A stretch of 64,000 nt of DNA. Origin: Candidatus Doudnabacteria bacterium. Lineage in GTDB: Bacteria > Patescibacteriota > Doudnabacteria > UBA920. The position numbers and the translations under genes are program-made. The notes beneath the pieces were generated by a model. That model made no database searches. It saw nothing but the letters and a program-made list of their open reading frames with translations, and was not told the origin of the DNA. The stretch covers positions 74,853 through 138,852 of the forward strand of contig CAWINB010000004.1 of NCBI GenBank assembly GCA_963837465.1. Direction: 5' to 3'. Within the stretch, counting starts at the first letter, position 1, and each line of letters starts with the position of its first letter. Positions 6,296 to 60,881 of the stretch are shown here, piece after piece.

Positions 6296-6324
6296 ATAGT
6301 ATACTTTCGTTCACCAATAGTCAA
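6296..6324 (-). promoter_or_regulatory. promoter-operator module copy 1: TTGACT-attg-GTGAAC-gaaa-GTATAC-TAT (gene strand), 17-nt spacer with -10 TACTAT, about 35 nt upstream of the dcm ATG
   Basis: Same 29-bp architecture as the copies at 47664-47692, 54222-54250 and 60853-60881. Confidence 0.6.
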
Positions 6325-6383
6325 CTAATCATAAATGGCTTGAATTGAAGACTTTTTGATTATTTATCCACAGAAATAAAACT

Positions 6384-6415
6384 AAAATCCCATCCTTTTG
6401 AGAGGATGGGATTTT
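6384..6415. terminator. bidirectional intrinsic terminator (AAAATCCCATCC-ttttgaga-GGATGGGATTTT) after the rpoC stop
   Basis: Perfect 12-bp stem flanked by an A-run and a T-run. Confidence 0.7.
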
Positions 6416-6424
6416 AAGAATTTT

Positions 6425-9400
6425 CTATTCCATTACTTCGACGACTGCTTCCATGGCCGAGCCTTCTATTTGCAGGTTTTGGCGGGCAATTTCGTCGGTG
6501 TAACCGGTACCGGCGGGAATGAGTTTGCCGATGATGACATTTTCTTTTAAGCCACGCAAATAATCTGTTTTTCCCGTAACAGCCGCTTCAATAAGCACGC
6601 GGGTGGTTTCCTGAAAACTGGCCGCGGCCAAAAACGAATCGGTGTTTAAGGAGACTTTGGTAATACCCATCAGCAGCTGCTCCGTGGTAGCGGGACGTTT
6701 GCCGGCGGAAACCAACTGTTCGTTAATGGCGCCGAGCTTGGCTTTGTCCACCACTTCGCCGGAAACAAATTCGCTGTCGCCGGAATCATTAATGCGGATT
6801 TTGGAAAACATTTGTTTTACAATAACTTCAATATGTTTGTCGTGGATGTTCTGACCCTGGGAAACGTAGATATCCTGGACTTCCTTGACCACGTATTTCT
6901 GCGCGGCTTCCAAACCCTTAAGTTCCATAATCTGCCCGGGGTTTAAATTGCCTTCTGTCAGCTGCTGGCCTTTGGTCACCAAGTCGCGGTCCTTAACCAG
7001 TAAAGACAAAGCCGCGGGAATGATATATTCCTTGACCTGGTCGCTTTCGTGCACCACGGTGATTTTGCTTTTGTCGGTGCCAAATCCGGATAAGACAACC
7101 AGGCCAGTTGTTTTAGCCTTAATCTGCTTGCCGCTTTCATCCACATACAAAACTTCCCCGGCTTCCACGCGGCTGCCATCTTTAATGGATGACTGCGCGT
7201 TGCCAAGTTCGTAGACATCCGTTTCCACATCCGCGCCCTGGATCCTGACCACCTGTTCTTTGTTGTTGGGCTTGCTGATGTAAACCTGTCCGTCTATTTC
7301 CGAAACCGTGGCCTGACCTTTGGGCTCTCTGGCTTCAAATAATTCTTCCACGCGGGGCAACCCCTGGGTAATATCTTTTACCGAGGCCGAACCTCCGGTG
7401 TGGAAAGTTCTCATAGTCAGCTGGGTACCCGGTTCGCCAATGGATTGAGCGGCCACAATACCTACGGCGGCGCCCATTTTTACCATATCGTTAAAACCTA
7501 AATCGTAACCATAGCACATGCGGCAAACGCCGCGGGGCAGCTTGCATTTGAGCACGCTGCGGCACTTAACTTCCTGCGAACCGGTATCGGCAATGGCCTT
7601 GGCCTGCAAATCATCAATCCCGTGGTTCTTTTCCACAATAACCTGTCCGTCTTTATCTTTCACTTCCTCGGCGGCAACTCTGCCGAACAAGCGGCGGTCA
7701 AACAGTTTGTTCATGCGCTGGCTTTCTTCCTGGGTGATTAGATCGTACTCTTCGGTGCCGCAATCCTCGGAGTTAACCACAATGTCCTGGGCCACGTCCA
7801 CCAACCGGCGGGTCAAATAACCGGCATCGGCGGTACGCATAGCGGTATCGGACATACCTTTTCTGGATCCGTGAGTGGAAATAAAATATTCCAAAACGCC
7901 CAGGCCTTCCTTAAAGCTGCCTTTAACCGGCAGTTCAATAACGTCGCCGGCCGGGTTAACCACCAGTCCTTTCATTCCGGACATCTGGGTGATTTGCGAA
8001 AACGAGCCTCTGGCGCCGCTGGACACAAAATAGTTAACCGAGCCGTATTCGGTAACGGTGCCGACAACCGACTTGGCGATGTTTTCCGAAACATCGGCCC
8101 AAATTTCCACCACGCGGTTTTTGCGCTCTTCTTCGGTAAGCAGTCCTTCGCGGTATTGCTGGTAAGTACCTTCAACTTCGGTGTCGGCTATTTTTAGCAT
8201 TTCATATTTGCCTTCAGGCACCAGCAAATCATCCATACCCCAGGACAGCCCGGATTTTTTCATATAGTAAAAACCGGTGCGCTTGATTTCGTCAATCAGT
8301 TCCGCGGTTTTTTCATTGCCGAGCAAACGGTGCGCCTCGCGGACCAGGGCTTGGAGTTTCTTCTTGTCAAAGTTATCGTTCCTAAAGCCAAATTCCCTGG
8401 GCACGACTTTATTAAAGATAAGCCGCCCAACGGAAGTTTCCGTAAGTTCTCCGTTCTCGCCGTTGTCCAAAGGCAACCTGACTTTAATGGCAGCCTGAAT
8501 ATGCGCGTAGCCGTTGTTGTAAGCCAAAATAGCTTCGGTGGGGTTGGCAAAGACCTTGCCTTCGCCTTTCATACCGGGATGGATGCGGGTAATGTAATAA
8601 CAGCCCACCACCACGTCTTTGTCCGGAGTCATAACCGGATCGCCGCTGGCAGGCTTAAGCAGGTTGTGGGCCGAGGCCATAATTTCCCGCGCTTCTTTTT
8701 GGGCCGCTTCGGTTAACGGCACGTGCACGGCCATTTGGTCGCCGTCAAAATCCGCGTTAAACGCGGCACAGACCATCGGATGCAACTGAATGGCCTTGCC
8801 TTCTATTAATACCGGCTGGAAAGCCTGGAAACCCAAACGGTGCAGGGTCGGGGCGCGGTTAAGCAGTACGTAGTGTCCGCGGGTAACCTCTTCCAAAATA
8901 TCATAAACTTCTGTCCTGCCCTGTTCTATTAAACGATTGGCGGAGCGGACATTATGGGCGAATTCGCGGCCGATTAGTTTGCTGATAACAAAAGGCTTGA
9001 ACAATTCCAAAGCCATCATTTTGGGCAAACCGCACTGGTGCAATTTTAAGTGCGGGCCCACAACAATAACGCTGCGTCCGCTGTAGTCCACGCGTTTACC
9101 CAAAAGGTTTTGGCGGAACCGTCCCTGTTTGCCTTTAAGCATGTCGGCAAGCGACCTTAACTTGCGTTTCTGTCCGGTGGAGGCAGTTACCTCTTTGCCG
9201 TGGCGGATGCTGTTGTCTATTAAAGCGTCCACCGCTTCCTGCAGCATACGTTTTTCGTTTTTGGTAATAACTTCCGGCGCCTTAATTTCCAGCAATTTTT
9301 TTAAGCGGTTATTGCGGTTAATAACGCGGCGGTACAAATCGTTTAAGTCGGACGCGGCAAAACGGCCGCCATCCAACTGGACCATGGGCCGCAAATCCGG

Positions 9401-15206: not shown

Positions 15207-15430
15207 TACAAACACATAGAGAATTTTATATATGGATTTGAGTATTTTTTATGTATAAATCATTCACGTATCTACAAAAGTAGAAATTTTATATATGGAT
15301 TTGAGTTTTAGATTCTTATAATATTATAACATATCTACAAAAGTAGAAATTTTATATATGGATTTGAGAGTTCCTGTACGGAAAGGACTGGAATATCTAC
15401 AAAAGTAGAAATTTTATATATGGATTTGAG
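15207..15430 (-). CRISPR. CRISPR array, leader-distal segment: degenerate terminal repeat (15207-15242) plus three intact 36-nt repeats (15270-15305, 15333-15368, 15395-15430); spacers of 27, 27 and 26 nt
   Basis: Repeat on the transcribed (minus) strand is CTCAAATCCATATATAAAATTTCTACTTTTGTAGAT, the canonical Cas12a crRNA repeat 3' hairpin. Confidence 0.9.
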
Positions 15431-15443
15431 TGAACTGCTCTGA

Positions 15444-16403
15444 TTATACCGTACCACTTCGACCGTTTTTGATGAGAGGTTTTAGAGCGGTCTTGGTGTA
15501 GGCCATCGGCGGTTTGTAGCCGATGCTGCTGTGTAATCTTCTATAATTATAGTAGTTAATTTTCTTCTTTACAAACTTAATAACTTCGGTTAAATTGGTC
15601 AGCTCAGATATCTCGCTTTGCAGCTCAGTCTTAAACCTGCCAAAGAAAGATTCCTGTCCTGGATTGTCCGTTGGAGTGCCAGGCTTGGAAAAAGATATCT
15701 TGCCGTGTCCCAGTATCGCTTCCACATAACTGTAACCGGTATACTGACTGCCCCTGTCCTGATGCCAAATCATTTTCTTAAATAATCTTTTTAACAGTTT
15801 GGGACAAGGTGGGAGTCGGCTGATAGTTTTTAAAGCGCTGCAAAACGAATTTAAGACTAAAGTTTCTTCCATGTTGTCATCAATATCGTATCCGTAAACT
15901 GCTTCCCCTAAGTTGTCCTTATGTACACACAAGTAAGCTTTTCCGGTTTTGAACTTCAACTCCGTAATATCCGAAGTAACGGCCTGCAAGGGTTTGGTGA
16001 TATTAGCCTTTAAAAGTAAGTTGGCTTTATCTCCTAAAGCATTTAAAGTTTTTTGAATAAAAGTATCTTTATTCTTTTTAATATTTCTAGGTAGACTAAG
16101 GCCCCAAAGGTTGCTTAATTTAGCCACTTTATCTCGGCCAATAGTAATGCGCTTGTTATCGTTCAGCTCATAGTAAAGCCTTCTTATTCCATAACCAGAA
16201 TTATCTTTTATGACTTTGACAAAGACTGCTTTTAAATGTTTATGGGCAATTTCAAACTTTTGGGTTTTATCACAGGCGTGGTAGTAAGTGTCCTTACTGA
16301 TATTAAAGAGTTTACAGATTTGATTAATCCCAATTCCATCCTGGCCGGCAAACTTGCGACAGTATTCGGCGATGCAAAGCTTGCTTACCCCTGACTGTCT
16401 AAA
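15444..16403 (-). CDS. IS3-family transposase OrfB (integrase core), expressed as an OrfAB fusion by -1 frameshift at T TTT TTA (about 16398-16404); the track ORF 15444..16127 is the Met-initiated portion
   Basis: 'HQDRGSQYTGYSYVEAILGHGKISFSKPGTPTDNPGQESFFGRFKTE...YNYRRLHSSIGYKPP'. The -1 frame is open from the slippery heptamer into 'MAKLSNLWGL...'. Confidence 0.75.
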   Translation of the reverse strand, partial: FRQSGVSKLCIAEYCRKFAGQDGIGINQICKLFNISKDTYYHACDKTQKFEIAHKHLKAVFVKVIKDNSGYGIRRLYYELNDNKRITIGRDKVAKLSNLWGLSLPRNIKKNKDTFIQKTLNALGDKANLLLKANITKPLQAVTSDITELKFKTGKAYLCVHKDNLGEAVYGYDIDDNMEETLVLNSFCSALKTISRLPPCPKLLKRLFKKMIWHQDRGSQYTGYSYVEAILGHGKISFSKPGTPTDNPGQESFFGRFKTELQSEISELTNLTEVIKFVKKKINYYNYRRLHSSIGYKPPMAYTKTALKPLIKNGRSGTV

Positions 16404-16711
16404 AAATTTTTAAGTAAGTTAATTTCCACTTCCTTTTTTCCCAGTAAGGATTCCAGATCACGAATTTGTTGTTTTGCTTGCTCTGTAGTTTTATCTGCTT
16501 TGAGTTCAAAGATGCTGGGACCGTTGTCCAGGAAGTGCCTGCGCCAGGTGGAAATTTGGTTGGGAGCTAAGTTATGCTTCCTGGCCAGTGCTGTAACTTC
16601 CGATTGTTTAAAACTTTCCAGTACCAGGTTAAACTTAAATTGGGCTGAATGTTTAATCTTAGAATTTAATTTGCTGCTACGCTTGTAGACATATTTTTTT
16701 ACATAATTCAT
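16385..16711 (-). CDS. IS3-family transposase OrfA (HTH plus leucine zipper)
   Basis: 108 aa ending at the slippery site; typical OrfA arrangement upstream of OrfB. Confidence 0.75.
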   Translation of the reverse strand: MNYVKKYVYKRSSKLNSKIKHSAQFKFNLVLESFKQSEVTALARKHNLAPNQISTWRRHFLDNGPSIFELKADKTTEQAKQQIRDLESLLGKKEVEINLLKNFLDSQG

Positions 16712-16825: not shown

Positions 16826-17049
16826 ATCTACAAAAGTAGAAATTTTATATATGGATTTGAGTTTTATGGAACGGCGTACAAGCACAGATCTACAAAAGTA
16901 GAAATTTTATATATGGATTTGAGGGGGAATAACCAAGTCGCCGCATTCCATCTACAAAAGTAGAAATTTTATATATGGATTTGAGTATATTCTTTGTGGA
17001 AGATGTGGGCTACATCTACAAAAGTAGAAATTTTATATATGGATTTGAG
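16826..17049 (-). CRISPR. CRISPR array, leader-proximal segment: four intact 36-nt repeats (16826-16861, 16888-16923, 16950-16985, 17014-17049); spacers of 25 (IS-adjacent), 26, 26 and 28 nt
   Basis: Repeats identical to those of the distal segment. Leader 17050-17211 lies between the array and cas2. Confidence 0.9.
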
Positions 17050-17211: not shown

Positions 17212-17493
17212 TTATTTAAAGACTAACACATCTTTCTCTTCGTTAGCCGAATAGCCATAACGAATGACTTTTTTTTGACAGACCAGACAAACTGGAAAAA
17301 TAACAATACTATCGCTATTGGTAAACTGCTTTTTATATACCAATTCTATCTCTTTTAAAATGTTTGTCAATACGCGCGGGCTGTTCTTTATTTCAAAAAC
17401 CGAATACTGAATTCTGCGGCCAAATTTCTTTAAAAATTTGCTGAATTTTGTCCTGGTTTTGTCGTCGGCAAAATCGTAAGAAACTAAAATCAT
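17212..17493 (-). CDS. cas2: CRISPR-associated endoribonuclease Cas2
   Basis: 93 aa starting 'MILVSYDFADDKTRTKFSKFLKKFGRRIQYSVFE'; sits between cas1 and the array. Confidence 0.85.
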   Translation of the reverse strand: MILVSYDFADDKTRTKFSKFLKKFGRRIQYSVFEIKNSPRVLTNILKEIELVYKKQFTNSDSIVIFPVCLVCQKKVIRYGYSANEEKDVLVFK

Positions 17494-17494
17494 A

Positions 17495-18457
17495 TTATTG
17501 AACCTCTTTGTTTAAAATATTAAAGTCAGGAAACTCGCCGCCGCTATGCATAAGAGACCTGTAAAATTTTTGGGTGAATAAATATAAAGCCTCTTTATTG
17601 TCCATAATTGCTTCCATAAAAATTTTGCCGTACTTTTGGCTTTTTTGATAATCTAAAACATATCTTCTGCCTACAACAGAAAAATCTTTACTATCTATTT
17701 GCTTGAGGTTGTAGGATTTTATAAGTTGTTTTTCTATAATACAGCGAAATGGCTCAATGATATCGCAGGTTAGTGATTTCCGCTGGAAAAATAATTTATG
17801 ATAGACCCCTTTGTAGGTATCAAAGCCAAACAGCAATAAAAGCGAATCAATAAAGTTAAATAAAAAAGTATAGCCCATATCCAATAAAAAATTAGGGATA
17901 TCGGGTTTTACCCGCGGCATACGTCTAAGCCAGCCAATTTTCCCAAAATATTCTCCAAAAAATACTCGGCTAAAATTTCCTTCCAGTCCCAATAACTCTT
18001 CAGGATTTCTGGCATTAACGACCTGCGCTAAAAATTCTGCAATCCCAGCTTCAACGTTCAAATCCCTATCTAATAACCTAAACTGGTTTTCCATTTTATT
18101 TGCTACCAATTTTTTTGCCATCCTAAACTCTTTTTCCTCGGGCATAGTGTATTGCATTGACCTAAGCATATAATTTCCCTCTGCCCGCGCGTTAAGGGCG
18201 CCGTATAACCCAAAATTATTACCCAAAAAAAATAAGGAAACCGCCCGCTTGCGGCACTCTTTTACTAAACCAGAGGTAAAAGAAAAGTCCCCGATTACGA
18301 ATATAGCCAAAATGCGGTGGCACGAAGCCTGGTTTATAATTTTTCCCTCTTTTTCAAAAACCACGTTTTCATTTTTAAAGAACAACCGGTTTTTAGCTCC
18401 GTGTTCGGTCTGGACAAATAAAATCTGCTTGGCTTTTAAATCCGGCAAAGTTAGCAT
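17495..18457 (-). CDS. cas1: CRISPR-associated integrase Cas1
   Basis: 320 aa of typical Cas1 length and conservation, adjacent to cas2 and cas4. Confidence 0.85.
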   Translation of the reverse strand: MLTLPDLKAKQILFVQTEHGAKNRLFFKNENVVFEKEGKIINQASCHRILAIFVIGDFSFTSGLVKECRKRAVSLFFLGNNFGLYGALNARAEGNYMLRSMQYTMPEEKEFRMAKKLVANKMENQFRLLDRDLNVEAGIAEFLAQVVNARNPEELLGLEGNFSRVFFGEYFGKIGWLRRMPRVKPDIPNFLLDMGYTFLFNFIDSLLLLFGFDTYKGVYHKLFFQRKSLTCDIIEPFRCIIEKQLIKSYNLKQIDSKDFSVVGRRYVLDYQKSQKYGKIFMEAIMDNKEALYLFTQKFYRSLMHSGGEFPDFNILNKEVQ

Positions 18458-18460
18458 AAG

Positions 18461-19003
18461 TTAGTTCCAAGCTAATGGGCTGTAAATATTATTTTGACAA
18501 TGGGCGCATGAATGTTCGGTAATATCCTTGGGGCTGAAACTTCTCATTTTTTGCAACGTTTGTTCAAATTCTAAAATTTCCTCCGCGCTTGGCAAGCCAA
18601 CTTCATAACGTTTGTTATCGGAAAGGCTGTGTAAAAACATTTTTTCTACTTTATACCCCATTTCTTCCATACAAAACATTTCCGCGTAAAGCTGGTATTT
18701 GTAACCCAAATAAATGTTTTTAATTTTATTTTTGCGCTCTATTAAAGTTTTTCCGGTTTGGTCATATATATCGATCTTGCCAATCAAACCATACCTCTCG
18801 CAATATACATCTATCCCCTGAACAAATCGCTTAGCGCTGGAATAAGTCCCATCTTCTATATTTTCATGCACCAACTTCCCCGCCACCTGCGCAGTTTCGT
18901 GATATCCCCGCTGGTCAAAATTCTCATATATTGTATGCAGATATAAAGACAAAGGACAGTAAAGAAAGTCATTTATTTTGGAAATTTGTATGTAATTTTC
19001 CAT
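18461..19003 (-). CDS. cas4: CRISPR-associated Cas4 (RecB-like nuclease with Fe-S cysteines)
   Basis: 180 aa with an N-terminal 'YCP' and C-terminal 'CAHCQ' cysteines. Order is cas12a-cas4-cas1-cas2. Confidence 0.75.
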   Translation of the reverse strand: MENYIQISKINDFLYCPLSLYLHTIYENFDQRGYHETAQVAGKLVHENIEDGTYSSAKRFVQGIDVYCERYGLIGKIDIYDQTGKTLIERKNKIKNIYLGYKYQLYAEMFCMEEMGYKVEKMFLHSLSDNKRYEVGLPSAEEILEFEQTLQKMRSFSPKDITEHSCAHCQNNIYSPLAWN

Positions 19004-19010
19004 TTATTTT

Positions 19011-22718: not shown

Positions 22719-22801
22719 AAGTTTTATTAGGAAAATTTAATTGTTAGGCTTATTTTAGGATAATTTCATAGTTTTTACAAATTTCGAGGCCGTTGACAAA
22801 T

Positions 22802-22850: not shown

Positions 22851-22875
22851 GGCTCCCGAAAGGGAGCCGTTTTTT
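22851..22875 (+). terminator. plus-strand intrinsic terminator GGCTCCC-gaaa-GGGAGCC + T6, abutting the mazF-like stop
   Basis: Perfect 7-bp stem with a GNRA-like loop and T-run. Not terminator-like on the minus strand. Confidence 0.55.
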
Positions 22876-45733: not shown

Positions 45734-46095
45734 AATACTTTCACTTTAATTTTTAATACCGAAAATTTATTGTGGCCGATAATAAATAAAGGTTCCCCGC
45801 CGCAAACAGCGGGGTATTACCGCAACTACGCTTCGCGGCAAGCCCGCGGGGCGGGGCATTGAACCTGTATTAACCCCTCTCGGCTCTCAAAGTAAATAGC
45901 AAGCTATTTACTTTGACTCGCTCTACGTCGCGAATAAAAATATTGCTGAAAATGTGCTTATGAGATTTATCATTTTTTATTATAAACTTATCCCTTTTAT
46001 AAATTTATGCTTTATTTAAGCATAACAGTTATAAATCTGTTGTCAAATAAGGTTATTTTAATTAAAAAGGCTTAATTATAATAAGTTATCCACAT

Positions 46096-46131
46096 AAAAA
46101 TCACCCTTTGGCTAAGCAAAGGGTGATTTTT
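46096..46131. terminator. bidirectional terminator AAAATCACCCTTTG-gctaagc-CAAAGGGTGATTTT downstream of the DUF3276-like gene
   Basis: Perfect 14-bp stem flanked by an A-run and a T-run. Confidence 0.65.
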
Positions 46132-46139
46132 ACCAAAAG

Positions 46140-46370
46140 TTATTTAACTTTTTCCGCCATCTCCTGGATTGCCTGGTTAAAATTTGTGAGATGATCCTGA
46201 AAAACAGTAAGCGAGCTTCTAAATTTCCTGCCGTCTTTGTTAATACTGCTTTCGGTAATAGTAAGGTACTTATTACCGTTCTTGGCCGCTTTGACGTCAA
46301 AAAAGTAAGTCTTGTTGCCTGCCTTTAAGTTGGCGGAGTGGAGCGCCGGCGCGTGTAATTGTTCGGGCAT
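46140..46370 (-). CDS. DUF3276/PUR-like small nucleic-acid-binding protein
   Basis: 'KAGNKTYFFDVKAAKNGNKYLTITES' resembles the DUF3276 family ('GKRTYFFDVKATRSGDYYLTITES'). Confidence 0.45.
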   Translation of the reverse strand: MPEQLHAPALHSANLKAGNKTYFFDVKAAKNGNKYLTITESSINKDGRKFRSSLTVFQDHLTNFNQAIQEMAEKVK

Positions 46371-47663: not shown

Positions 47664-47692
47664 ATAGTAAACTATCGTTCACCAATTGTAAA
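47664..47692 (-). promoter_or_regulatory. promoter-operator module copy 2: TTTACA-attg-GTGAAC-gata-GTTTAC-TAT, about 135 nt upstream of fic
   Basis: Same 29-bp architecture as the other three copies. Confidence 0.6.
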
Positions 47693-47740
47693 GCCCTTAA
47701 TAATAAGGGTTAAATAAACTATCGCTTTAGTTATGCACAG

Positions 47741-48379
47741 TTATATTTCAAAGCTTTCCAATTGTTTTTTAATGCCTGCCACAGACTGCTCTGTAATATC
47801 TTCGGGGTTGATGGAACAACGTTCAAAAATCTGTCGTTCCATTTGCCGCATAGCGTTTTCAAAATTATCCCGCGCTTCTGAACTATCTTTATGATGCTTG
47901 TAACGCGCGCGCAAATCGGCCAACCTTTGCTCCAAACTGACCACGCCATGCGGCCCTACGCGGTCATCGCAATACTCCACAATTTTTTTGCCAAAATCCG
48001 CGCCGGCGGCGTTTGCCGGAGCGCCCAAAAAACTTACAGAGTCTATTAATTCCAAAACCCTGGCGCTTACCCCCAGCTCCCCGGCAATTTGTAAATGCGC
48101 CTGATGTTCGTTATTGCCGTATTTAGCCCGATACTCATCCTGAACTTTTTGCCAATAGCCAATATCAATATTAAAATTCAGCAAATTTTTTGTAACCCCA
48201 AGGTCAAACTTAATAATGTTACCCATATCGTGCAGCAGGCAGGCTTTAATAATATTGCCGTCGTCGACTTGGCCGCTAAAATTTTGGCAGATTATTTTCG
48301 CCACGGCCGCCACCCTAAGCTGATGCTGGGCCAACTGCGGCATAATTTTATATTTTTTATAGATTTCTAAAATATTCAT
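47741..48379 (-). CDS. HD-domain phosphohydrolase
   Basis: 'ACLLHDMGNIIKF' HD motif. Confidence 0.6.
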   Translation of the reverse strand: MNILEIYKKYKIMPQLAQHQLRVAAVAKIICQNFSGQVDDGNIIKACLLHDMGNIIKFDLGVTKNLLNFNIDIGYWQKVQDEYRAKYGNNEHQAHLQIAGELGVSARVLELIDSVSFLGAPANAAGADFGKKIVEYCDDRVGPHGVVSLEQRLADLRARYKHHKDSSEARDNFENAMRQMERQIFERCSINPEDITEQSVAGIKKQLESFEI

Positions 48380-48531: not shown

Positions 48532-49071
48532 CTAAAAAAACCCTTCCATAATCTCAATAATTCTTTTTAGCGTGGCGTTTTTGATTCTTGTCGTTTCAAT
48601 AACTGTCTTCGTAAAAAGTTTCTCGCACTTAATTTGGGTTAGCGTCTTGTCTCCATTTAGATAATTTTTTTGAAAACGCTTCTTTAGGGCGGCAGACATA
48701 TCATTGGCGTGATTTGCCGATGGTTCTAAAATTGACAATAGCAAACATTCCAAACAGGGTGTATTTTCCACTACTTCAATATTTCTATTGGAAGCTTCTT
48801 CTCTGGCCACAGCCATTTCTCCTTCGCTTTTATCATTATCCAGGATAACAACTCTCTTATCAAAGGCAGAAAAATCGTTACCCGCATCTACAACAATGTC
48901 TCTGGCGCTGCCGCCTTTACCCCTTCTTACGGTCACGGCAACATTTTTGCCATAGGCAAATAAGCTTTTAAGATGCCTTAAAAAGATTTCTTCATTAAGA
49001 CCTTCCCCATAAACCAAAATTGTCCTGTTTGCCGAGCGCGGTTTTTTCTTATATGGATCCGTTCGTGACAT
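48532..49071 (-). CDS. small TOPRIM-like protein (RloB/DUF4276-like) paired with the upstream ATPase
   Basis: 'TILVYGEGLNEEIF' (conserved Glu) and 'VVILDNDKSEGE' (DxD) are TOPRIM-type motifs; 19 nt downstream of the ATPase gene. Confidence 0.5.
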   Translation of the reverse strand: MSRTDPYKKKPRSANRTILVYGEGLNEEIFLRHLKSLFAYGKNVAVTVRRGKGGSARDIVVDAGNDFSAFDKRVVILDNDKSEGEMAVAREEASNRNIEVVENTPCLECLLLSILEPSANHANDMSAALKKRFQKNYLNGDKTLTQIKCEKLFTKTVIETTRIKNATLKRIIEIMEGFF

Positions 49072-49089
49072 TTTGTTTTACTGTTACTT

Positions 49090-50304
49090 TTAAAGCTTTG
49101 GAACGGCACCATAGGCTCCGGCCATATATTTAGCGTAGTAGTTATCATCCGCCCGTACGCCACTAACCTCATCCAAACGCCAAGATTCACTTTCATTACT
49201 TTGGTTTTTTTCTACGAATACTAACTGATATTTATCCAATTTACTTAAAATTATATGGCTATGAGTGCTAAATAAAAGCTGGGCATTCTTAGGGTTGGTT
49301 TCCGGCTGGATAAATAGATCAAAAAGCGAAAGTAATATCTCAGGATGCAGACTGGAGTCCATTTCATCAAACACGGCAATTCCTCCTTTATCCAATACTT
49401 GTAAAATACTTTTTAAAAGAACAAATAACTGTTTAGTTCCTGAAGACTCATAAATAATCGGAAGGGCTTGTTCTTGGCCATTGTATGAGTGAATGCCCGT
49501 GATGTTTATTTGAAAACCATTCCCGGATGGCTTTTTGTCTATATTAATACCCGCCAATCCAAGATCAAAACGAGATAAAAGCTTTTCTGCTTTTTCTTTC
49601 AAAGCCTTATTATCGTTATAAAAAACCAAAGCATCAAACCATTGAGGCATTGCGTTATTCAACATTGGATCTCCCATCCAACCAGTCTCACTGGCATTCG
49701 TCTCTAGTCCCTGCCAAAATTCTGCGATCTCCTGGCTTTCCTTATGGTTTAAACGGGCCGCTGCCGAAATAACGCTAGCATTTTTACGCAATAAATTTAA
49801 ATTTTCAAAACCTTTAGGCAAGCCGAAGCCCTCGCCGTCAAAAGTATAAGCTGCTGATTGAGGGTTCCATGTTCGGACAAATAACGTTTTGGTCCCCATT
49901 TTTTCTTTTGCCATACTTGTGAGTTTTAACTCTTCCAAAAAAATCTTGGTTTTGTCTAAAATAAAGCTATACGTATAAATTTTTTTATCAACTTCAAACA
50001 CAACAGAAAGCTCTGTTTGCTGATCTTTCTTCTCTCCAAAAGCAAACGATTGTACTGCAATAGGAAATTCTGGCGGCATTGTAAACGAAGTAACAATAAG
50101 CCATTTAAAAAATGGTAAAACTTTAAGCAAGTTAGTTTTGCCTGAGGCATTAGAACCTATTATCGTTTCTACTTTTGAAAGCCGGGTGCCGGAAGGGGCT
50201 ACAAAATATCCATAATTTTCCGGAGCATTGTCGTTCACGACAAAATCAAGGGTTGTCAAGTCCCCAAAAGAATAAAAATTCTTGCAAGAAAAAGAATGGA
50301 TCAT
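49090..50304 (-). CDS. AAA/ABC-type ATPase of the OLD/RloA/AriA class (AAA_21-like)
   Basis: Walker A 'GSNASGKTNLLKV' near the N-terminus and a Walker B/D-loop region 'GIAVFDEMDSSLHP'. Confidence 0.6.
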   Translation of the reverse strand: MIHSFSCKNFYSFGDLTTLDFVVNDNAPENYGYFVAPSGTRLSKVETIIGSNASGKTNLLKVLPFFKWLIVTSFTMPPEFPIAVQSFAFGEKKDQQTELSVVFEVDKKIYTYSFILDKTKIFLEELKLTSMAKEKMGTKTLFVRTWNPQSAAYTFDGEGFGLPKGFENLNLLRKNASVISAAARLNHKESQEIAEFWQGLETNASETGWMGDPMLNNAMPQWFDALVFYNDNKALKEKAEKLLSRFDLGLAGINIDKKPSGNGFQINITGIHSYNGQEQALPIIYESSGTKQLFVLLKSILQVLDKGGIAVFDEMDSSLHPEILLSLFDLFIQPETNPKNAQLLFSTHSHIILSKLDKYQLVFVEKNQSNESESWRLDEVSGVRADDNYYAKYMAGAYGAVPKL

Positions 50305-50527: not shown

Positions 50528-53389
50528 CTATTTTACTTCAATAATCTTGATTTCCTCATCCGTCAAACCATATAGCTTATAAATTTCCTGGTCGATTTTT
50601 TTGTCAGTTTTGACGATTTCATCTTTGAGCTTTTGCCAATCATTGGAGTTTGCTTGAGTTTTTACTAATGAATGATTGAGTTCAACTATTTTGTCTACCA
50701 AAACGGCAACTTGCTTTTGTTCTGTAGCGCTGGGAACGTAAATAGGAATATTAAGAATCGGTTCTTTGTCGATTTGAAGCATATCACCTTGCATTTTGCC
50801 TTTTCCTCGAAGCCAAAAATAGTTTAGCTTTGAATTTAAAAGCCCAGTTAGGTATTTTAGATTGGAGCGATTTGTACTTATGACAAAATAGGTCTGTGAT
50901 ACAAAACAGGGAAAGTCAACATAAGAAAACCTTGGGATATCGGTTTTGCGTATTGAAAAAACGCTAGGTCCGAGAAATAATTTCTCCTCACGGGCTCAAT
51001 GCAAACCATAAGGTCCAAATGATGAGGTGATAACACTTTTGTATCTGCTAAGATGTTTTTTTATTTCAGGATAACTATCAATTTTTTTTGCAACTTTACT
51101 ATCTGTATAAATTATCCAAAAACTATTTTTGGGGTTAATGTTGTAACGATTTATTTGCTCTGAAGTATAAAAGGGTCTTATAAGCTTTCTCTCTTCTGGG
51201 GATAATTTTAGACTACTAAGCTCATCATTAGATAAAACAAATATCCCTTCCCCTAATACGGCCCCGTGAATTAATGAAAGATGGGGACGAATTACAGACT
51301 CCTGGGGAGCCACAATACCTTGGCCAACTTCTTTATCGGTGAGTTCAAAATTTTTTTTACTTTCTAATTTATCAAAAATTGAGCCGAATTCTTCGTTCGC
51401 AAAAGTAATATTTTTACCAATTAATTTTTGGGGTTCAATTTCGATTTTCTTTTTAGCTGACAAAATATCAGAAACCAATTTACCTTCATCAATATTTTTA
51501 TCTGTAATCCTTAAATATTCTATTGGGTATTTTTAGCGTGGCTCGCCTTTTTTAAAAACGTAAATCATTGTTTGAATGCCAGCATCTTCAAAAACTTTGT
51601 AATCTCCGAAGTCGATAAAAGTAATTAACTCACCTTCATTCAGAATTTTATCTCTAAAAATACTTGCTCCGGCATTAGTCACCCAGTTATTAGGGGCTAT
51701 AAAACTCATCGTGCTGTTATCTTTTAAAAGGTCAATTGACATACAGGCAAACATTGTCCAAATATCCATTTTGCCTTGATAGTAAGGGCTGCTATGTAAA
51801 CCATCAAATGCGCTTTTATTTACAAACTCTTTAATATATGGCGGGTTGCCGATTATACAATCAAAACCGCCCTGTTTAAAGACTTCCGGGAATTGGTCTT
51901 GCCAGTCAAAGGGTTTTTTGGAACGGAACTCGGAGCCGAAGTGTTTTTTTAGTTCTTCATCTGTACCAGAAATTAAGGAATTGCCATTTTTTATGTTATT
52001 ACCAAGATTGGGTAGTTTTATCTGTGAATCGCATACCGCCAAGAGTAGGTTTAAACGCGCAAGTTCAACGGCTTGTTCGTCTAAATCTACGCCATAAATA
52101 TTATTTATTAAAATTTGTACTTTTAAAAATGGCTCGTTCTTAGCCCCAAATTCTTCATATTTTTTTAGGATTTTTTCAAATGCGGCAATTAAAAAAGAAC
52201 CGCTTCCGCAGGCTGGATCTAGGACTTTTATTTTTTGCAAATCATTTATGCTTTTGCACTTATCCAAGACCGGACAGAGAGCATTTTGGACTATATATTC
52301 CACAACAAACCTGGGGGTATAATAAATGCCGTGTTCTTTGCGTTTTCTTTTATCTTTGGCCAGGTCTAAATCCTTGCCGAACAAAGTTTTTTTGGACTGT
52401 TCCAATTTATAGCCCAAATAGTTTTCGTAAACAGCGCCTAAAACATCGGCCGGAATGGCAGAAAAATCATATTCAAAATAGTCTTTATCTCCATACAAAA
52501 TTTCAATTGATTTTTCTGTAGCGCCGCTAAATTCTTCCCATTGCTCAAAAGGGTGAGGGGAGAATAGGTTAGAGTTATAAATATTGTCTAAATAGCGAAA
52601 TTTTTCTACCATGGCCTGATAAGGACTGCTTTGGCCTGATGTACCGCCGGCTTTCCATTGATTAATTAAAGGCCTAAGGGTTTGTGGCTCTATTTTTCTA
52701 TCCTCTGCGACGCGTATAAAAATTAAACGGTCAAGTAATTTTTGCACGCCCTCGTCAATTAAATATGGGGAAACTTTTTGGTTCCAACTTGTAAAGGCCT
52801 CTGTTAAAATCTTGCGGCTGTCGTTTAAATCTTTTGCTAATTTTTCAGTAACAGAAACCTTCTGGAGCTTCTTTCCGACTTTCTCGGCCTCTCTGTCCAA
52901 AACATCTTCAGTAAACGCTTGTTTGGACAACCACCATAATTCTTCAAAGCGAGTTAAATATTCCTGATATGTAAAAGATAGATACTTTTTACCTGCCAAA
53001 GATTTTTCCGGAGAAAGAGCGTTAAACACCATTAATCCTTCAAAATCGCTTAAGGCAGCCCAAGTAACACCCTTATTCCAAGAATAGCGTATGGCCTGCT
53101 TGGCATGATCTTCACGATATAAGTCCACCGAAAACTTTTTAGCTTCCAGATAAAATTTAATTCTGCCATTTAAATAAAAACCGTAATCAACTCTATCCTT
53201 ACTGATTTGCTCCTCGGCTGTTACTTCATTTCTTTGCAAAAAATCCCAGCCTAAAGCTGAAAATAAGGGCTCTATAAAACCCTTTTTTGTTTCTTCTTCA
53301 CTATATTTTGCCAATTTTCCGGCGACTTTTTCTGTCTGGTACTTTTCTACTAACTTAACTATCTGCTTTTTTGCGAGTTCTTTTTCCAT
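50528..53389 (-). pseudogene. type IIG/IIL (MmeI/Eco57I-like) restriction-modification enzyme split into three ORFs (53389-51533, 51478-50996, 50794-50528)
   Basis: N-terminal PD-ExK 'VDYGFYLNGRIKFYLEAKKF', gamma-class N6-adenine MTase motifs 'VLDPACGSGSFL' and 'IIGNPPY', TRD-like middle fragment, C-terminal '...LYGLTDEEIKIIE'. Total length is about that of MmeI. Confidence 0.6.
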
Positions 53390-53466: not shown

Positions 53467-53673
53467 TGTTTCTAAAACACAAAGCCCCGCGCCAGCATGA
53501 GCCTTACGGCTCCATGGCCTTTCGACCATGACCCAACGAAGAGTAGCTGAACACGGGGTTCAGTATTTTCGTTGGGTTTTTTCATGCCATGCCCGGGCCC
53601 TTGGGGGGCTGCGGGTTTAGGCATATTAAGTTGTTAGCCTTATTTTAGGGTAATTTTAGGTTTTTTACAAATT

Positions 53674-54201
53674 TTACCCCCTCTGCAGCCGGCTGTATTC
53701 TTCGTTGGCAACTTTGTCCGCGGCTCTGGCCCAAAAACTGCCGCGGCTGTGGTGGAAGTAGGAAACTTTGGCAAAACGCCTTTCCAGTTTTTTAATTTCG
53801 TCAAACAGCGGCTTAATACGCTCCGAGCGCAGGCAATAAATTCCATTGAGTTGCCCCACTACCACCTCGCTATCCATCCAAACCTCCACTTCCCTCCTGC
53901 AAAACCCCGGCGCGCGATCGAGCGCGAAAATAACGGCCGCGTATTCCGCCTGGTCAATTGTAACATCGCCTAAATATTTAGCTCTTTGCTCAACTACTTC
54001 ATCACGACCACCAACCATAACGTAGCCGCAAGCGGATTTGCCCCGCGCCTTATGCTGTGGAATATGCTGTCTGTTTTCCGGCACGCGGCAACAGGCATCG
54101 CAAATAATTTTTAAAAATGGATAGCAAAAATACGCTGCCAATTTCTCGCCAACGGCAATATCCTGCAAATAATAAAAACTGTTTAAGGTAAATTTGGGCA
54201 T
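53674..54201 (-). CDS. ribonuclease H-like (RNase HI/RVT-associated RNase H family) protein
   Basis: 'ACGYVMVGG...QAEYAAVIFALDRA...EVEVWMDSEVVVGQLNG...' carries the DEDD-type RNase H core. Confidence 0.6.
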   Translation of the reverse strand: MPKFTLNSFYYLQDIAVGEKLAAYFCYPFLKIICDACCRVPENRQHIPQHKARGKSACGYVMVGGRDEVVEQRAKYLGDVTIDQAEYAAVIFALDRAPGFCRREVEVWMDSEVVVGQLNGIYCLRSERIKPLFDEIKKLERRFAKVSYFHHSRGSFWARAADKVANEEYSRLQRG

Positions 54202-54221: not shown

Positions 54222-54250
54222 ATAGTATACTATCGTTCACCTATTGTCCA
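54222..54250 (-). promoter_or_regulatory. promoter-operator module copy 3: TGGACA-atag-GTGAAC-gata-GTATAC-TAT, about 20 nt upstream of the rnh-like ATG
   Basis: Same 29-bp architecture as the other copies. Confidence 0.6.
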
Positions 54251-54305
54251 GTGGATAACTTTTTACAGCAGAGATTATAAAAAGTTAATCGTTAAATGTT
54301 AAATG

Positions 54306-57152
54306 TTAAATGTCTAACCTATCCATCTCCCCCCAATTATTCCCGACCTTGGCTTCCACCCGCACGGGAACCGAAAGCTTTATGGCGTTTTCCATTAAGG
54401 GGATGAGTTTTTTGGCCCAAAATTCCACTTTATCTTCTTTAACCTCAAACACCAGTTCATCGTGAACCTGAAGAAGCATCCGGATTTCCTGACTTGTTAC
54501 CAGTAACTTGTCACTAGTCACTTGTTTGTGAATGTTAATCATCGCCACTTTAATAACGTCCGCCGCCAAACTCTGAATGGGAAAATTCACGGCGGCGCGT
54601 TCGGCCGCGGCGCGTATAAAAAATTGCGAGGATTTAATTTCCGGGAACTTGCGGACGCGGCCAAGCTCGTTACGCACAAACCCCTCCTGGTTAACCTGTA
54701 GCTTAACCTGCTCTATATATTGCTCCACGGCCGGGTAGGCTTCAAAATATTTTTTAATAAACTGCTTGGCATCGGCATTGCTGACTTCGCCAATACGCGA
54801 TGAAAGCCCAAACGATGAAAGTCCGTAAAGAATGCCGAAATTAATGGTTTTAGCGTCCCGGCGCATATCTTTGGTTATTTTGTCGGCAGGCACCCCAAAA
54901 ATTTCCATGGCTGTTTGGCTGTGAATATCTTCACCTTTTTTAAACACCTCCATCATCTTTTTATCTTTGGCCAAATGCGCCGCGACGCGCAGTTCAATTT
55001 GCGAATAGTCGATGGACAGCAATTTATAGCCTTTTTCCGCCACAAAAGCCTGCCTTACCTTGCTTCCCATCCCCTCACCTTTAACCGGAATGTTTTGCAG
55101 ATTCGGGTCTACCGAAGACAGCCTGCCCGTTGCCGCGATGGTCTGGTTATAGCTGGTATGGATGCGTCCGGTTTTTTTATTTACCAATTCCGGCAGGGCC
55201 AGCAAATAGGTGGATTGTAATTTGGACAGTTCGCGGTACTGCATAATTTTGGCAATGACCGGATGCTGGCCCAGCATTTTTTCCAGCTCGTCGGCGGCCG
55301 TGGAAAGTCCGCTCTTGTTTTTCTTGTTCATAACAGGCAACAGGCCCATTTTTTCAAACAAGACTTCCTTCATTTGCTTGGGTGAGTTTATATTAAACTC
55401 TTCCCCCGACAGCTTATAAATTTCACTTTCCAGTTCTTTAATGTCTATTTCCGCCTCGGCCGATAACCGGTTTAAAAACTTGGCATCCACCTTAATGCCA
55501 TTTTGTTCCATATTGGCCAAAACTTCTATAAGCGGAATTTCAATTTCGTTAAAAACTTTTTCCAAGCCCTCTTCCTTTAATTTTGGCGCAAATAATTCTT
55601 TGAGCCGCAAAGTCATGTCCACATCTTCACAGCAATACCAGGAAACTTTTGCGGGATCAACTTTATCCATGGTTATTTGCGTTTTGCCTTTGCCGATAAG
55701 CTCCTCTATTGGCTGCATTTGATAACCCAGCTCGTTAAAAGCCAGCGCTTCCAGGTTATGCTGGCGGGTACCGGCGTTTAATAAATACGACGCGATCATA
55801 GTATCAAAATAGAGAGGCGCCAGGTTACAGGTATTGGATTTAAGGGCCTCGAGGTCGAACTTAATGTTGTGGCCGGTTTTTTTTATTTTTTCATCGACCA
55901 GTAATTTTTTTAAGCTATGGGATGCCGATGCCAAAGCCGCGGACACATAATAAGCCTCGCCGGCTTTAGAACAAAGGCCTATGCCCACCAGTTCCGTATC
56001 CACCGATGTCAAACTTGTTGTTTCTGTGTCTATAACAATTTCTTTTTCTCGCGCTAATTTTTTTAAAGCCTTTTCCAGTTTTTCCTGGGTGTCTAAAAAT
56101 ATATAGTCCTGTTTGAATTTCCTATCGGAGACATTTTTTTCCAGTGGAGAGCTATCGTCACTAACCGCTAATCCCTCTTTATCCGCCGAAGCCTTGTCGA
56201 AGGCGGAACCCCTGTCAACTTGTCCCTGCCCCTTCGGCAACTTGCTCAGCAAACTCCTGAACTCCAATTCCTGGAAAAGTTTTACCGTAGTTTGCAAATG
56301 GGGCGCGTCCAAATCGTACTTTGGCACATTTATTTCCACAGGTACACTGCAATCTATTGTGGAAAGTTCAAAAGACATCCGTGCTTCTTTTTCCTGGGCC
56401 TTAAGCAATTCCAAAACCCGCGGCTTTATTTTAGCGCCGGTTTTTTCCGCGGTAATGGCTTCATACAAACCATCAAGTGATTTAAAATCTTTCACCAACT
56501 CGGAGGCGGTTTTTTCGCCAATACCTTTTACGCCCGGGATGTTATCGGACGGGTCGCCCCGCAGGGCTTTATAACTCACCATTTGGTCGGGATTCAAACC
56601 ATAGCGCGCCCTTACGGCCTTGGGGTCATAAACCATGGTATCGCTGATACCTTTGCGCATGGTGTAAATTTTTACGCAAGTCTCTACAAGCTGCAAAGTA
56701 TCCAAATCCCCGGTGACAATAAAAACTTCGCAGTCGTTTTTGCAATGCTCACAAATTTTTTTAGACAGCGTACCCAGCAGATCATCGGCCTCAAATCCTT
56801 CTTTTTCGTAAATAGAAATATTCAACCCGCGCACCACTTCCTTAACCCGGGGGATTTGGTCGTAAAGCTCCTGGTCACTTTTGACCCGGTGCGCCTTATA
56901 CTGGTCATAAGCCAAATGCCTAAAAGTGGGTCCTTTTAAATCAAAAGTACAGGCAATGTGGGTAGGCTTAATATCCTTTATGGCCTTAAGTAATATTAAA
57001 GTAAAACCATATACTGCGTTGGTTTGTTCGCCGCTCTTGGTATTTAAAACCGGGATGGCATGATAACCGCGGTGAATAAGCGCGTTGCCGTCTATGAGCA
57101 TGTAGCGTGATTTTGATGATGTTGGCATAAAGCTATTATAAACCATCGGCAC
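54306..57152 (-). CDS. polA: DNA polymerase I (5'-3' exo, 3'-5' exo and polymerase domains; GTG start)
   Basis: 948 aa with the Pol A family motif 'DYSQIELRVAAHLAKD'. Confidence 0.95.
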   Translation of the reverse strand: MPMVYNSFMPTSSKSRYMLIDGNALIHRGYHAIPVLNTKSGEQTNAVYGFTLILLKAIKDIKPTHIACTFDLKGPTFRHLAYDQYKAHRVKSDQELYDQIPRVKEVVRGLNISIYEKEGFEADDLLGTLSKKICEHCKNDCEVFIVTGDLDTLQLVETCVKIYTMRKGISDTMVYDPKAVRARYGLNPDQMVSYKALRGDPSDNIPGVKGIGEKTASELVKDFKSLDGLYEAITAEKTGAKIKPRVLELLKAQEKEARMSFELSTIDCSVPVEINVPKYDLDAPHLQTTVKLFQELEFRSLLSKLPKGQGQVDRGSAFDKASADKEGLAVSDDSSPLEKNVSDRKFKQDYIFLDTQEKLEKALKKLAREKEIVIDTETTSLTSVDTELVGIGLCSKAGEAYYVSAALASASHSLKKLLVDEKIKKTGHNIKFDLEALKSNTCNLAPLYFDTMIASYLLNAGTRQHNLEALAFNELGYQMQPIEELIGKGKTQITMDKVDPAKVSWYCCEDVDMTLRLKELFAPKLKEEGLEKVFNEIEIPLIEVLANMEQNGIKVDAKFLNRLSAEAEIDIKELESEIYKLSGEEFNINSPKQMKEVLFEKMGLLPVMNKKNKSGLSTAADELEKMLGQHPVIAKIMQYRELSKLQSTYLLALPELVNKKTGRIHTSYNQTIAATGRLSSVDPNLQNIPVKGEGMGSKVRQAFVAEKGYKLLSIDYSQIELRVAAHLAKDKKMMEVFKKGEDIHSQTAMEIFGVPADKITKDMRRDAKTINFGILYGLSSFGLSSRIGEVSNADAKQFIKKYFEAYPAVEQYIEQVKLQVNQEGFVRNELGRVRKFPEIKSSQFFIRAAAERAAVNFPIQSLAADVIKVAMINIHKQVTSDKLLVTSQEIRMLLQVHDELVFEVKEDKVEFWAKKLIPLMENAIKLSVPVRVEAKVGNNWGEMDRLDI

Positions 57153-59494: not shown

Positions 59495-59988
59495 TCTACT
59501 TTGAGATAACTACATCACCAAGAAGCCCTGCAGGGTAACTCCTTGGGCGGGGACAAAAATGAAACTTTCATTTCTAACTTCGCCCAAGGAATCCAAATTT
59601 TCTTCTCTTAAAATCCTCCTACGGATTTATTTAAAGAACAAAAAAGTAATCGGCACGGTTTGTGCAGATTAACTCAAAATTGTACCTTATTTTAGGGAGT
59701 TTGTCAATATCAAAATTATTAAAACCGCATATTTATGCGGAATTAGAGGATGGAGATTACAAATTTATTGCTGATATACTGATAGGAACACTTATTTTAT
59801 GATATATTTACAATTCTCTTGAATTTAACACCTTCACGACCAAAGTGAACCAACAAGCCAAGTTGGAGGTTTAAGGCTTTTAAATAATTTAAAGTTTGCT
59901 GTATGTGGTTCCTGGAAACGCGTAAATGAGATCAATAGTGTTTTTTGTTTCCATCCGTATATCAGTAACAAATTAGTAATCCCTATCC

Positions 59989-60828
59989 TTATTTAAACTG
60001 TTTGTTATTTTTAAGTACAAAACGCCGGCCGGGCAGGTAATTACTTTTGGATACTACGCTCCTGCCGGTTTCTTTTTCTGTTTCTTTTCTGGCTTTGCCG
60101 GCTACGCTGCCGCCTCTTTGGGCTACTTTTTTGTTGTTTAAAAATGTTGTCGGTTTTTCTATTTGGGAAATTTCGGTTGTGACCCGTTCGCCAAGCATAG
60201 TAAATATAAGCTCCAGGTCGGTCATATGGTCCGCAAATTTTCCTGTTTCAGATCTTTAAGTTTTTTGTATTGGCCCGGAGTCATTCCAAAAGTCGCTTTG
60301 GAAATTTCCGCGGTCAGGATTTCATAGTTTTTTTGTTCGCTCACGCCTCTGTTTTTCCATTCGTCGGTCAGCTCCTCCCTAATGGCAATGCCACGCATTC
60401 GCTTTTCTATCCAACCGTCGGGATAACCTTTAAGTTTATAAAGCATCCCGCGTCCTTTTTGTGGCCAGTTCGGGATCTTCTATTTCCTGCACCCGCTCAT
60501 AGCCAACTTTGGCCAGCCATCGCTTAAACGGCTCGGCCTTGGGAGATGGAATGGACTGGACTATACGAAAAATGCCTTCTGTATTGGCGCAGTCGGTTTC
60601 GCGCATTTTTCCATCCGGGGCTTGTAACTTCAACCATCGACAAATTGTCGATAGTTCAAGGCCGTCTTCCGTTTTAACCCTGACTTTCATTTTATACCAA
60701 TAATCATTGGCGTTTAAGCTGTCAGTAAGAGCCGCGATAACATCCACAACCGAAAACCACCAGTCATTTTGGTGTATGACTTTTCTTATTTCCTTACCTT
60801 TAAACAAGGCGATTGCTGTTGTTTCCAT
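59989..60828 (-). pseudogene. dinD-like (DNA-damage-inducible protein D; Bro-N/KilA-N-type N-terminus) gene split by two frameshifts into ORFs 60828-60436, 60446-60222 and 60225-59989
   Basis: Consecutive fragments align along E. coli DinD ('...WFSVVDVIAAL...', '...AEPFKRWLAKV...', '...MTDLELIFTMLGERVTTEI...'). Overlaps of 11 and 4 nt indicate frame changes. Confidence 0.55.
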
Positions 60829-60852
60829 AATTCTAAAGTTAATCTTTTTATT

Positions 60853-60881
60853 ATAGTAAACAAACGTTCACCTTTTGTCAA
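60853..60881 (-). promoter_or_regulatory. promoter-operator module copy 4: TTGACA-aaag-GTGAAC-gttt-GTTTAC-TAT, about 25 nt upstream of the dinD-like ATG
   Basis: Same 29-bp architecture as the other copies. Confidence 0.6.

Follow-up and report, generated by a model that had tools for sequence, protein, structure and literature searches.

The DNA analysed here, a 64-kb stretch of a Candidatus Doudnabacteria contig (CAWINB010000004.1; "the window" in the following), is chromosomal and carries genes for a class I tRNA synthetase, a Mur ligase and FemAB together with mscL, rpoB, rpoC, ruvA, uvrB, polA and pilB. These housekeeping genes are broken up by low-GC islets (GC content 0.31-0.40 vs 0.45-0.50), inside which five copies of a 29-bp promoter module face minus-strand genes, including those for a restriction-modification (R-M) system, a MazF-like toxin heading a Cas12a locus, and several candidate defence proteins (Table 1; gene calls from Pfam, NCBIfam and PADLOC). 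Judging from its sequence and from the genes that follow it in related genomes, the module is very probably the LexA operator-promoter of a Doudnabacteria-like lineage of Patescibacteria.

Five copies of the module in the window

The window was searched for the 29-bp module TTGACA-N4-GTGAAC-N4-GTWTAC-TAT, with dinucleotide-preserving shuffles serving as the control. At up to three mismatches, five matches are present where 0.01 would be expected, and the operator core GGTGAACGNNNGTWTAC by itself returns the identical five sites, and no others, at up to two mismatches (0.40 expected); at three mismatches, additional window matches to the core appear only at chance level. Four of the copies had been reported in a first-pass annotation of this DNA and are all recovered by the pattern search at the minus-strand coordinates given there, and its statement that every copy faces a minus-strand gene holds for all five sites; the copy named promoter 2 in Table 1 had been overlooked. 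The same annotation had described the promoter parts as preserved throughout. This is true of the 17-nt spacing and the -10 hexamer TACTAT, which are invariant across the five copies, whereas the -35 hexamer varies and scores 4-6 out of 6 against TTGACA; all sites classify as sigma-70-type promoters. The left half-site GTGAAC of the embedded dyad is perfect in four of the five sites, and the right half reads GTTTAC (5/6 positions) or GTATAC (4/6). The canonical sequence GAAC-N4-GTTC has no exact match anywhere in the window.

Occurrence in related genomes and downstream genes

Using the exact pattern AC-N4-GGTRAACG-N3-GTWTACTAT, one genome per species was scanned across 185,579 genomes (GTDB), which yielded 98 loci vs about 17 expected by chance according to our own uniform-composition estimate. 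Metagenome-assembled genomes of Patescibacteria, also known as the candidate phyla radiation (CPR), account for 88 of these loci and are labelled Candidatus Doudnabacteria, "Saccharibacteria" or Patescibacteria group; the remaining ten lie in unrelated taxa and lack a -35 hexamer. The 88 CPR loci comprise 89 sites, 87 of which have enough flanking sequence for tabulation. At positions outside the pattern, the TTG of the -35 hexamer is found in 87/87, 87/87 and 86/87 sites, respectively, and an A follows 7 nt after the -10 hexamer in 75 of 87, which fits a purine start.

The most frequent first gene behind the 89 CPR sites is lexA (28 sites), with RhuM-Fic in second place (15), followed by genes for N6_N4 methyltransferases (MTases; 9), PIF1-like helicases (6), RecA (5), ORF6N proteins (4), Eco57I-type methylases (2) and DinB (2). 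RadC, Dam and the HaeIII, EcoRII-C and Tsp45I endonucleases occur once each, alongside a few unrelated genes. R-M genes are found behind at least 14 sites, eight of which were verified as full operons of MTase and restriction endonuclease (REase), and the link to R-M systems is a lineage-wide feature that is not peculiar to the source genome. Several genomes contribute two sites, namely lexA with recA (L009/L034), lexA with an MTase gene (L010/L008; L066/L058) and recA with RhuM-Fic (L018/L037; L074/L042). With the module preceding lexA, recA and dinB in relatives, the earlier proposal of a LexA-type regulon in which an R-M system and stress or toxin-like genes are brought together is supported.

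A metagenome scan using the pattern with an 18-nt spacer revealed four loci representing natural variants of that spacing; they precede a RadC gene, two genes for 23S rRNA-intervening-sequence proteins (L101, L103) and one gene of a 127-aa family. The window has a gene of this same 23S rRNA-intervening-sequence protein family (24421-24789), which separates the ATPase gene of an ABC-2 transporter operon from the permease gene. Among viral contigs, the scan returned a single match, which lacks the TTG of the -35 hexamer and is probably a chance hit; the scan gave no indication of the module in CPR phages.

The operator as a probable LexA box

The lexA genes behind the module encode canonical repressors: their products contain the LexA_DNA_bind and Peptidase_S24 domains, score 201 bits with TIGR00498 (cut-off 111) and align over the full length with Escherichia coli LexA, with the Ala-Gly cleavage site, the serine of GDSMK and the lysine of TVKR kept. 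Since this set of genes had been selected by the motif, lexA genes were also picked by protein similarity as a motif-independent test. In all five genes obtained in this way, the module precedes the start codon by 25-60 nt, four of the copies being exact and one a variant (GTGTAC...TACCAT). Furthermore, every occurrence of GT[GA]AAC-N4-GTT[CT]AC in 713 kb of CPR sequence falls at module promoters.

Upstream of lexA, a second and perfectly palindromic box is present in L010 (position 1985), L020 (5093), L051 (3186) and L096 (1441), and another in L065 (3403) upstream of a lexA-promoter-like TTGAC, where the gene is not assigned to lexA. These second boxes are of the form GGTAAAC-N4-GTTTACC or GTGAAC-N4-GTTCAC, as exemplified by AGTGAACAAATGTTCACT and GGTAAACGACTGTTTACC; they lie upstream of the promoter-embedded box and adjoin a DnaA-like box. 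On account of these perfect palindromes at lexA promoters, the LexA box of the lineage can be given as GTGAAC-N4-GTTCAC, with the Gram-positive-type core GAAC-N4-GTTC. The likeness of the dyad to a Gram-positive-type SOS box, noticed in the first-pass annotation, is thereby borne out for the core.

The operator of the Gram-positive-type LexA (DinR), known as the "Cheo box", is CGAAC-N4-GTTCG. The module shares with it the GAAC-N4-GTTC core and its spacing, the overlap with the promoter, the position upstream of lexA, recA and dinB, and the canonical self-cleaving S24-type LexA. In contrast, the module is flanked by GT..AC instead of C..G, has a right half of GT(A/T)TAC at nearly all sites, and would control a regulon in which R-M and candidate defence genes predominate. 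Moreover, fusion of the right half-site to the -10 hexamer makes a single, fixed unit of 29 bp out of operator and promoter.

According to the mechanism we propose, the spacer and the first half of the -10 hexamer of a sigma-70-type promoter would form the LexA operator. The right half-site would be relaxed to GT(A/T)TAC because the same bases also serve as the -10 hexamer, the C-to-T change in the embedded form creating TACTAT. With transcription starting about 7 nt after the -10 hexamer, the operator would extend from about -25 to -10, and LexA, bound there as a dimer, would keep RNA polymerase off the promoter. Upon DNA damage, filaments of RecA on single-stranded DNA would trigger the self-cleavage of LexA and, thus, derepression of the Dcm/REase/Vsr operon, the MazF-like toxin, RhuM-Fic, the RNase-H-like gene and the degraded Bro-N gene in the window, with possible read-through from promoter 2 into the Cas12a operon and from promoter 4 into the LOOT RNA and the type IIG R-M gene. 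What the sequences show directly is the module, its specificity, its association with lexA, recA and dinB in relatives, and the canonical type of the LexA encoded there. That LexA binds and represses these promoters, that damage induces them and that transcripts continue into the downstream operons is inferred from these data, and the inducibility of individual downstream genes is less certain than the identity of the LexA operator. Taken in this way, the data suggest that the bacterium raises its immunity genes upon DNA damage.

Several observations weigh against LexA control of the window promoters. The right half-site is degenerate throughout, at site 2 the G of the left half is missing as well, and the -35 hexamer falls short of the consensus at three of the five sites. 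The window's uvrB, ruvA and polA genes have no box. There is no lexA gene within the 64 kb and none is tied to the source contig; sequencing run ERR10755945, which yielded a contig bearing a window gene, also contains a lexA gene (L116) with an exact copy of the box, though probably on another contig or in another genome. The genome scan relied on an exact pattern, and the positions specified in it are, therefore, ascertained rather than observed to be conserved. Finally, cas12a has a promoter-like element of its own, as does the type IIG gene, and a hairpin follows mazF, which makes their SOS control uncertain; since the hairpin and the separate 44-nt elements intervene, LexA could govern Cas12a and the type IIG enzyme only by way of read-through.

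A DnaA box as companion of the promoter

The exact octamer TTATCCAC or GTGGATAA lies within 120 nt upstream in 72 of 94 LexA-box promoters of relatives and window (73 boxes). Its extended consensus TTGTGGATAACT matches the DnaA-box consensus in sequence, and 9-mers were accepted as DnaA boxes on the basis of TTATNCACA. The octamer is the most enriched 8-mer upstream of module promoters: of its 113 copies in all the sequence analysed, those at module promoters fall in 68 of 91 regions. For genes preceded by 90 nt or more of intergenic sequence, it is present at 34/56 of those with a LexA box vs 20/256 of those without (Fisher p = 4e-17). Its placement is phased: boxes in reverse orientation are located at about -50, -60 and -70, i.e., in 10-nt steps, or at -17, and those in forward orientation at -21 or at -12, where they abut the -35 hexamer. 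Promoters of lexA, recA, RhuM-Fic, R-M, PIF1 and ORF6N genes carry the octamer, as opposed to none of the two dinB promoters.

In the window, sites 1, 3 and 4 are accompanied by such boxes (Table 1). The abutting arrangement of site 4 recurs at the R-M promoters of L031, L044, L080 and L092 as well as in L067, where the contig ends after the motif. The association hints at a coupling of SOS genes to replication status.

A further promoter-like site in the window (46030-46095, minus strand; TTGACA-N16/17-TATGCT), located just past a terminator, has TGTGGATAACTT exactly 50 nt upstream and no LexA box; DnaA-like boxes are, hence, not strictly limited to LexA promoters. Behind it follow a GC-rich stretch that is untranslated (about 45780-45960) and an LCAT-like gene; an Rfam search of 45700-46150 gave nothing significant.

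Conserved slots with exchangeable cargo

Three window sites occupy chromosomal positions which are conserved in relatives. Behind rpoC, the box is followed by differing R-M systems in L031, L078, L085 and the window (site 1). After polA, a box with a variable gene is followed by an HD-domain gene and by a further box with RhuM/Fic; the arrangement of polA, HD gene, box and RhuM/Fic seen at site 3 is orthologous in at least nine relatives, and a site in L036 (4539), which is orthologous to window site 4 and likewise lies after polA, precedes a PDC-S05 gene. Divergent from an ABC transporter, the box precedes an N6_N4 MTase gene in L008 and L016 and mazF-cas12a in the window (site 2). The ORF6N, Bro-N and RhuM-Fic genes correspond to the PADLOC candidate defence families PDC-S05, PDC-S13 and PDC-S23, respectively. 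Likeness between the copies is limited to about 35 bp, with unrelated flanks and 5' leaders, and for this reason a promoter fixed in its slot and one that travels with its cargo are indistinguishable.

These arrangements invite a broader, tentative reading, which we regard as possible rather than probable: the SOS promoters could be dual-input modules, consisting of a LexA operator and a phased DnaA box, which mark fixed docking slots in the chromosome for exchangeable anti-phage cargo, with DNA damage and replication status together acting as the master signal for immunity. The cargo might then comprise, though this again is more conjecture than expectation, type II and IIG R-M systems, genes of the PDC-S05, PDC-S13 and PDC-S23 families, and the MazF toxin heading the Cas12a locus.

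Alternative explanations

Bro-N, ORF6N and RhuM-Fic could be LexA-controlled antirepressor switches of cryptic mobile elements instead of host defence or stress genes. LexA-repressed antirepressors exist in prophages, and the Pfam domains Bro-N, ORF6N and Phage_pRha are typical of phage antirepressor or regulatory proteins. However, RhuM-Fic occupies its conserved chromosomal position next to polA and the HD gene in many genomes where phage genes are not nearby, and PADLOC lists all of these families as candidate defence genes; we, thus, consider this explanation unlikely.

Alternatively, the module could be the conserved end of exchangeable defence cassettes, either as a portable promoter or as a recombination junction. 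Its recurrence would then stem from the mobility of cassettes instead of a host regulon, a reading compatible with LexA control. In line with this, three window sites lie in conserved slots that contain differing cargo in relatives, the islets are of low GC content, and promoters of one sub-family, AGTTATCCAC-N-TTGACAATAGGTGAACGAT, stand before R-M systems that are unrelated to one another and differ in their surroundings (L044, L080, L092 and site 4). Yet the shared sequence is as short as stated above, the core genes lexA and recA also stand behind the module, and no integrase or recombinase is associated with it, which renders a cassette end quite improbable.

Bound by another, lineage-specific repressor, the operator would have lexA, recA and dinB merely as targets. 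This would agree with the deviation of the right half-site from the canonical LexA palindrome. Against it stand the predominance of lexA behind the motif, also in the motif-independent set (a classic signature of autoregulation), and the perfect palindromes at lexA promoters, which present the known Gram-positive-type LexA half-site pair; in addition, no alternative regulator gene recurs beside the CPR sites. We hold another repressor to be very improbable.

Lastly, a plain strong-promoter consensus of the organism with no dedicated regulator, which the first-pass annotation had raised as a possible counter-argument, would account for a -35 hexamer, spacing and -10 hexamer close to the sigma-70 consensus, but can practically be dismissed, given that the invariant spacer GGTGAACG...GT is unneeded by sigma-70 and missing from other promoter-like sites of the window, such as the element before cas12a, the site at about 46030 and that of the ABC transporter (23369-23396), that only five sites occur in 64 kb with none before rpoB/C, uvrB, polA or pilB, and that the downstream gene set is narrow and recurrent.

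Comparison with known systems and significance

The closest functional analogue is the regulon of DdaA, a WYL-type activator of Moraxellaceae that has replaced the SOS system and directly controls repair genes together with R-M and CRISPR-Cas defence (PMC12392091). Here too, a single DNA-damage regulator would preside over both repair and defence genes; DdaA, however, is an activator, whereas a classical LexA repressor appears to act here, in a very distant phylum. For the DnaA box, a precedent of co-regulation is the E. coli uvrB promoter region with its DnaA and LexA boxes (PMC6015884). That case concerns one promoter with mostly weak boxes, in contrast to the perfect and phased octamer which accompanies most LexA promoters, and all classes except dinB, in the lineage studied here.

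E. coli dinD is a further point of comparison, being a LexA-controlled gene with a Bro-N domain. The gene behind promoter 5 had been called "DinD-like"; it shares the Pfam domain Bro-N (32.4 bits for DinD, 50.3 bits for window positions 60436-60828), but BLASTP finds no similarity between the two (E = 2.6 or worse), and the designation is, therefore, valid only at the domain level. The window gene differs also in being a frameshifted member of PDC-S13 that is without an NCBIfam match.

The LexA network of Patescibacteria has reportedly been described by Sanchez-Osuna, Barbe and Erill (Environ Microbiol 2017, PMID 28618189), and the motif, perhaps along with part of the regulon, may already have been published in that work. 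No description of LexA-regulated R-M systems was found in the literature searched. Three aspects appear to be new, namely the predominance of R-M and candidate defence genes in the regulon, the conserved slots in which the promoter stands before exchangeable cargo, and the phased DnaA-box companion of most promoters.

Gene regulation in the CPR is almost uncharted, and the control of many bacterial defence systems is an open question. The module provides a concrete cis-element with its putative cognate repressor and predicts that DNA damage induces R-M and candidate defence genes. The swapping of cargo in conserved slots points to an easy way of placing a defence gene under regulation as soon as it is acquired. 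If true, the coupling of LexA and DnaA boxes would constitute a new promoter architecture; in the tentative broader reading, damage and replication status could be the master immunity signal in these ultra-small bacteria.

Genes behind the window promoters and further features

Table 1. Promoters, DnaA boxes and downstream features of the window, and R-M operons found behind the box in relatives
Feature	Position	Strand	Details
Promoter 1	6296-6324	-	TTGACTATTGGTGAACGAAAGTATACTAT; TTGACT-N17-TACTAT; operator GTGAAC-GAAA-GTATAC
Promoter 2	23321-23349	-	TTTACATAAGGTAAACGTTCGTATACTAT; TTTACA-N17-TACTAT; operator GTAAAC-GTTC-GTATAC
Promoter 3	47664-47692	-	TTTACAATTGGTGAACGATAGTTTACTAT; TTTACA-N17-TACTAT; operator GTGAAC-GATA-GTTTAC
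Promoter 4	54222-54250	-	TGGACAATAGGTGAACGATAGTATACTAT; TGGACA-N17-TACTAT; operator GTGAAC-GATA-GTATAC
Promoter 5	60853-60881	-	TTGACAAAAGGTGAACGTTTGTTTACTAT; TTGACA-N17-TACTAT; operator GTGAAC-GTTT-GTTTAC
DnaA box, site 1	6364-6372	+	TTATCCACA; on the promoter strand TGTGGATAA; 50 nt upstream of the AC of the -35 hexamer
DnaA-box variant, site 3	47731-47739	+	TTATGCACA; fits TTATNCACA; likewise at -50
DnaA-box octamer, site 4	54251-54258	-	TTATCCAC; abuts the -35 hexamer as AGTTATCCAC-TGGACA
R-M operon behind promoter 1	3882-6263	-	Dcm C5-MTase 5223-6263; type II REase 4241-5287; Vsr 3882-4244; GC content 0.357
PemK/MazF-like toxin gene, first behind promoter 2	22874-23269	-	no antitoxin gene seen adjoining
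GC-rich hairpin	22851-22868		directly 3' of the mazF stop; no T-run after it on the minus strand
Type V-A cas operon	17212-22718	-	cas12a 19011-22718; cas4 18461-19003; cas1 17495-18457; cas2 17212-17493
RhuM + Fic/DOC protein, behind promoter 3	46532-47527	-	full-length match to PADLOC PDC-S23 (candidate defence family)
RVT_3/RNase-H-like gene, first behind promoter 4	53674-54201	-	Pfam/NCBIfam
LOOT RNA	53499-53623	-	Rfam RF03000; 65.6 bits (gathering score 46.4)
Type IIG R-M gene	51533-53389	-	618 aa; model residues 6-648 of 1011 (about two thirds)
Bro-N/PDC-S13 gene behind promoter 5	59989-60828	-	open reading frames (ORFs) 60436-60828, 60222-60446 and 59989-60225
44-nt promoter-like elements	22741-22784; 53631-53674	-	TTGTAA-N17-TAAAAT
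R-M operons behind the box, relatives			L031 MTase + MutH-like; L084 MTase + MvaI/BcnI
R-M operons behind the box, relatives			L041, L083 Eco57I-type MTase + DpnII/Tsp45I-like; L044 Dam + Dam + AlwI
R-M operons behind the box, relatives			L060 HaeIII + Dcm; L080 EcoRII-C + Dcm; L092 Tsp45I + MTase

Promoter 2 lies 600 nt upstream of cas12a on the same strand, with the hairpin and one of the two 44-nt elements in between. The latter have the form AAATTTGTAAAAA-N5-AAATTA-N-CCTAAAATAAG-N-CTAACAA; one copy immediately precedes the cas12a ATG and the other the LOOT RNA, and none of the fetched loci contains the element. Homologues of the window's MazF (69-79% identity) stand in unrelated surroundings that lack both a box and cas12a, no search having been made with Cas12a itself, and no further cas locus stands behind a box among the relatives' sites examined. 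A Cas12a-type CRISPR array, whose repeat reads ...AATTTCTACTTTTGTAGAT on the minus strand, occupies 15217-15431 and 16826-17049 and is split by an IS3-like element (15444-16711), the ORFs of which are of the HTH_Tnp_1 and rve types.

In the island between polA and RhuM-Fic, an AbiLi/AbiLii abortive-infection pair (AAA_21 and RloB; 48532-50304) adjoins the HD-domain gene (47741-48379), which is located between polA and RhuM-Fic in relatives; neither the pair nor the HD gene has a LexA box of its own.

The LOOT RNA, which is not discussed in the main text of its source paper, sits between the RNase-H-like and type IIG R-M genes, in the unit headed by the putative SOS promoter 4. The type IIG gene looks disrupted, as a 160-aa ORF 3' of it (region 50996-53389) weakly matches the C-terminal part of the family. 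Between polA and promoter 4, the heptamer AAATGTT is tandemly repeated 4.9 times (54280-54313), overlapping the polA stop codon (54306-54308) and extending into the spacer.

The three ORFs behind promoter 5 match residues 1-130, 132-201 and 204-271 of the Bro-N/PDC-S13 model. As read from the sequence, the gene is frameshifted, which would make it either a pseudogene or a product of assembly indels.

The 600-nt gap between ruvA and uvrB (30209-30805) contains a promoter-like site (TTGACA-N17-TAGATT), which is followed by a T-run at a distance of about 390 nt. Neither an ORF nor a significant Rfam match is present in the gap, which folds better than shuffled sequences (z = -3.3) and may encode an undescribed non-coding RNA.

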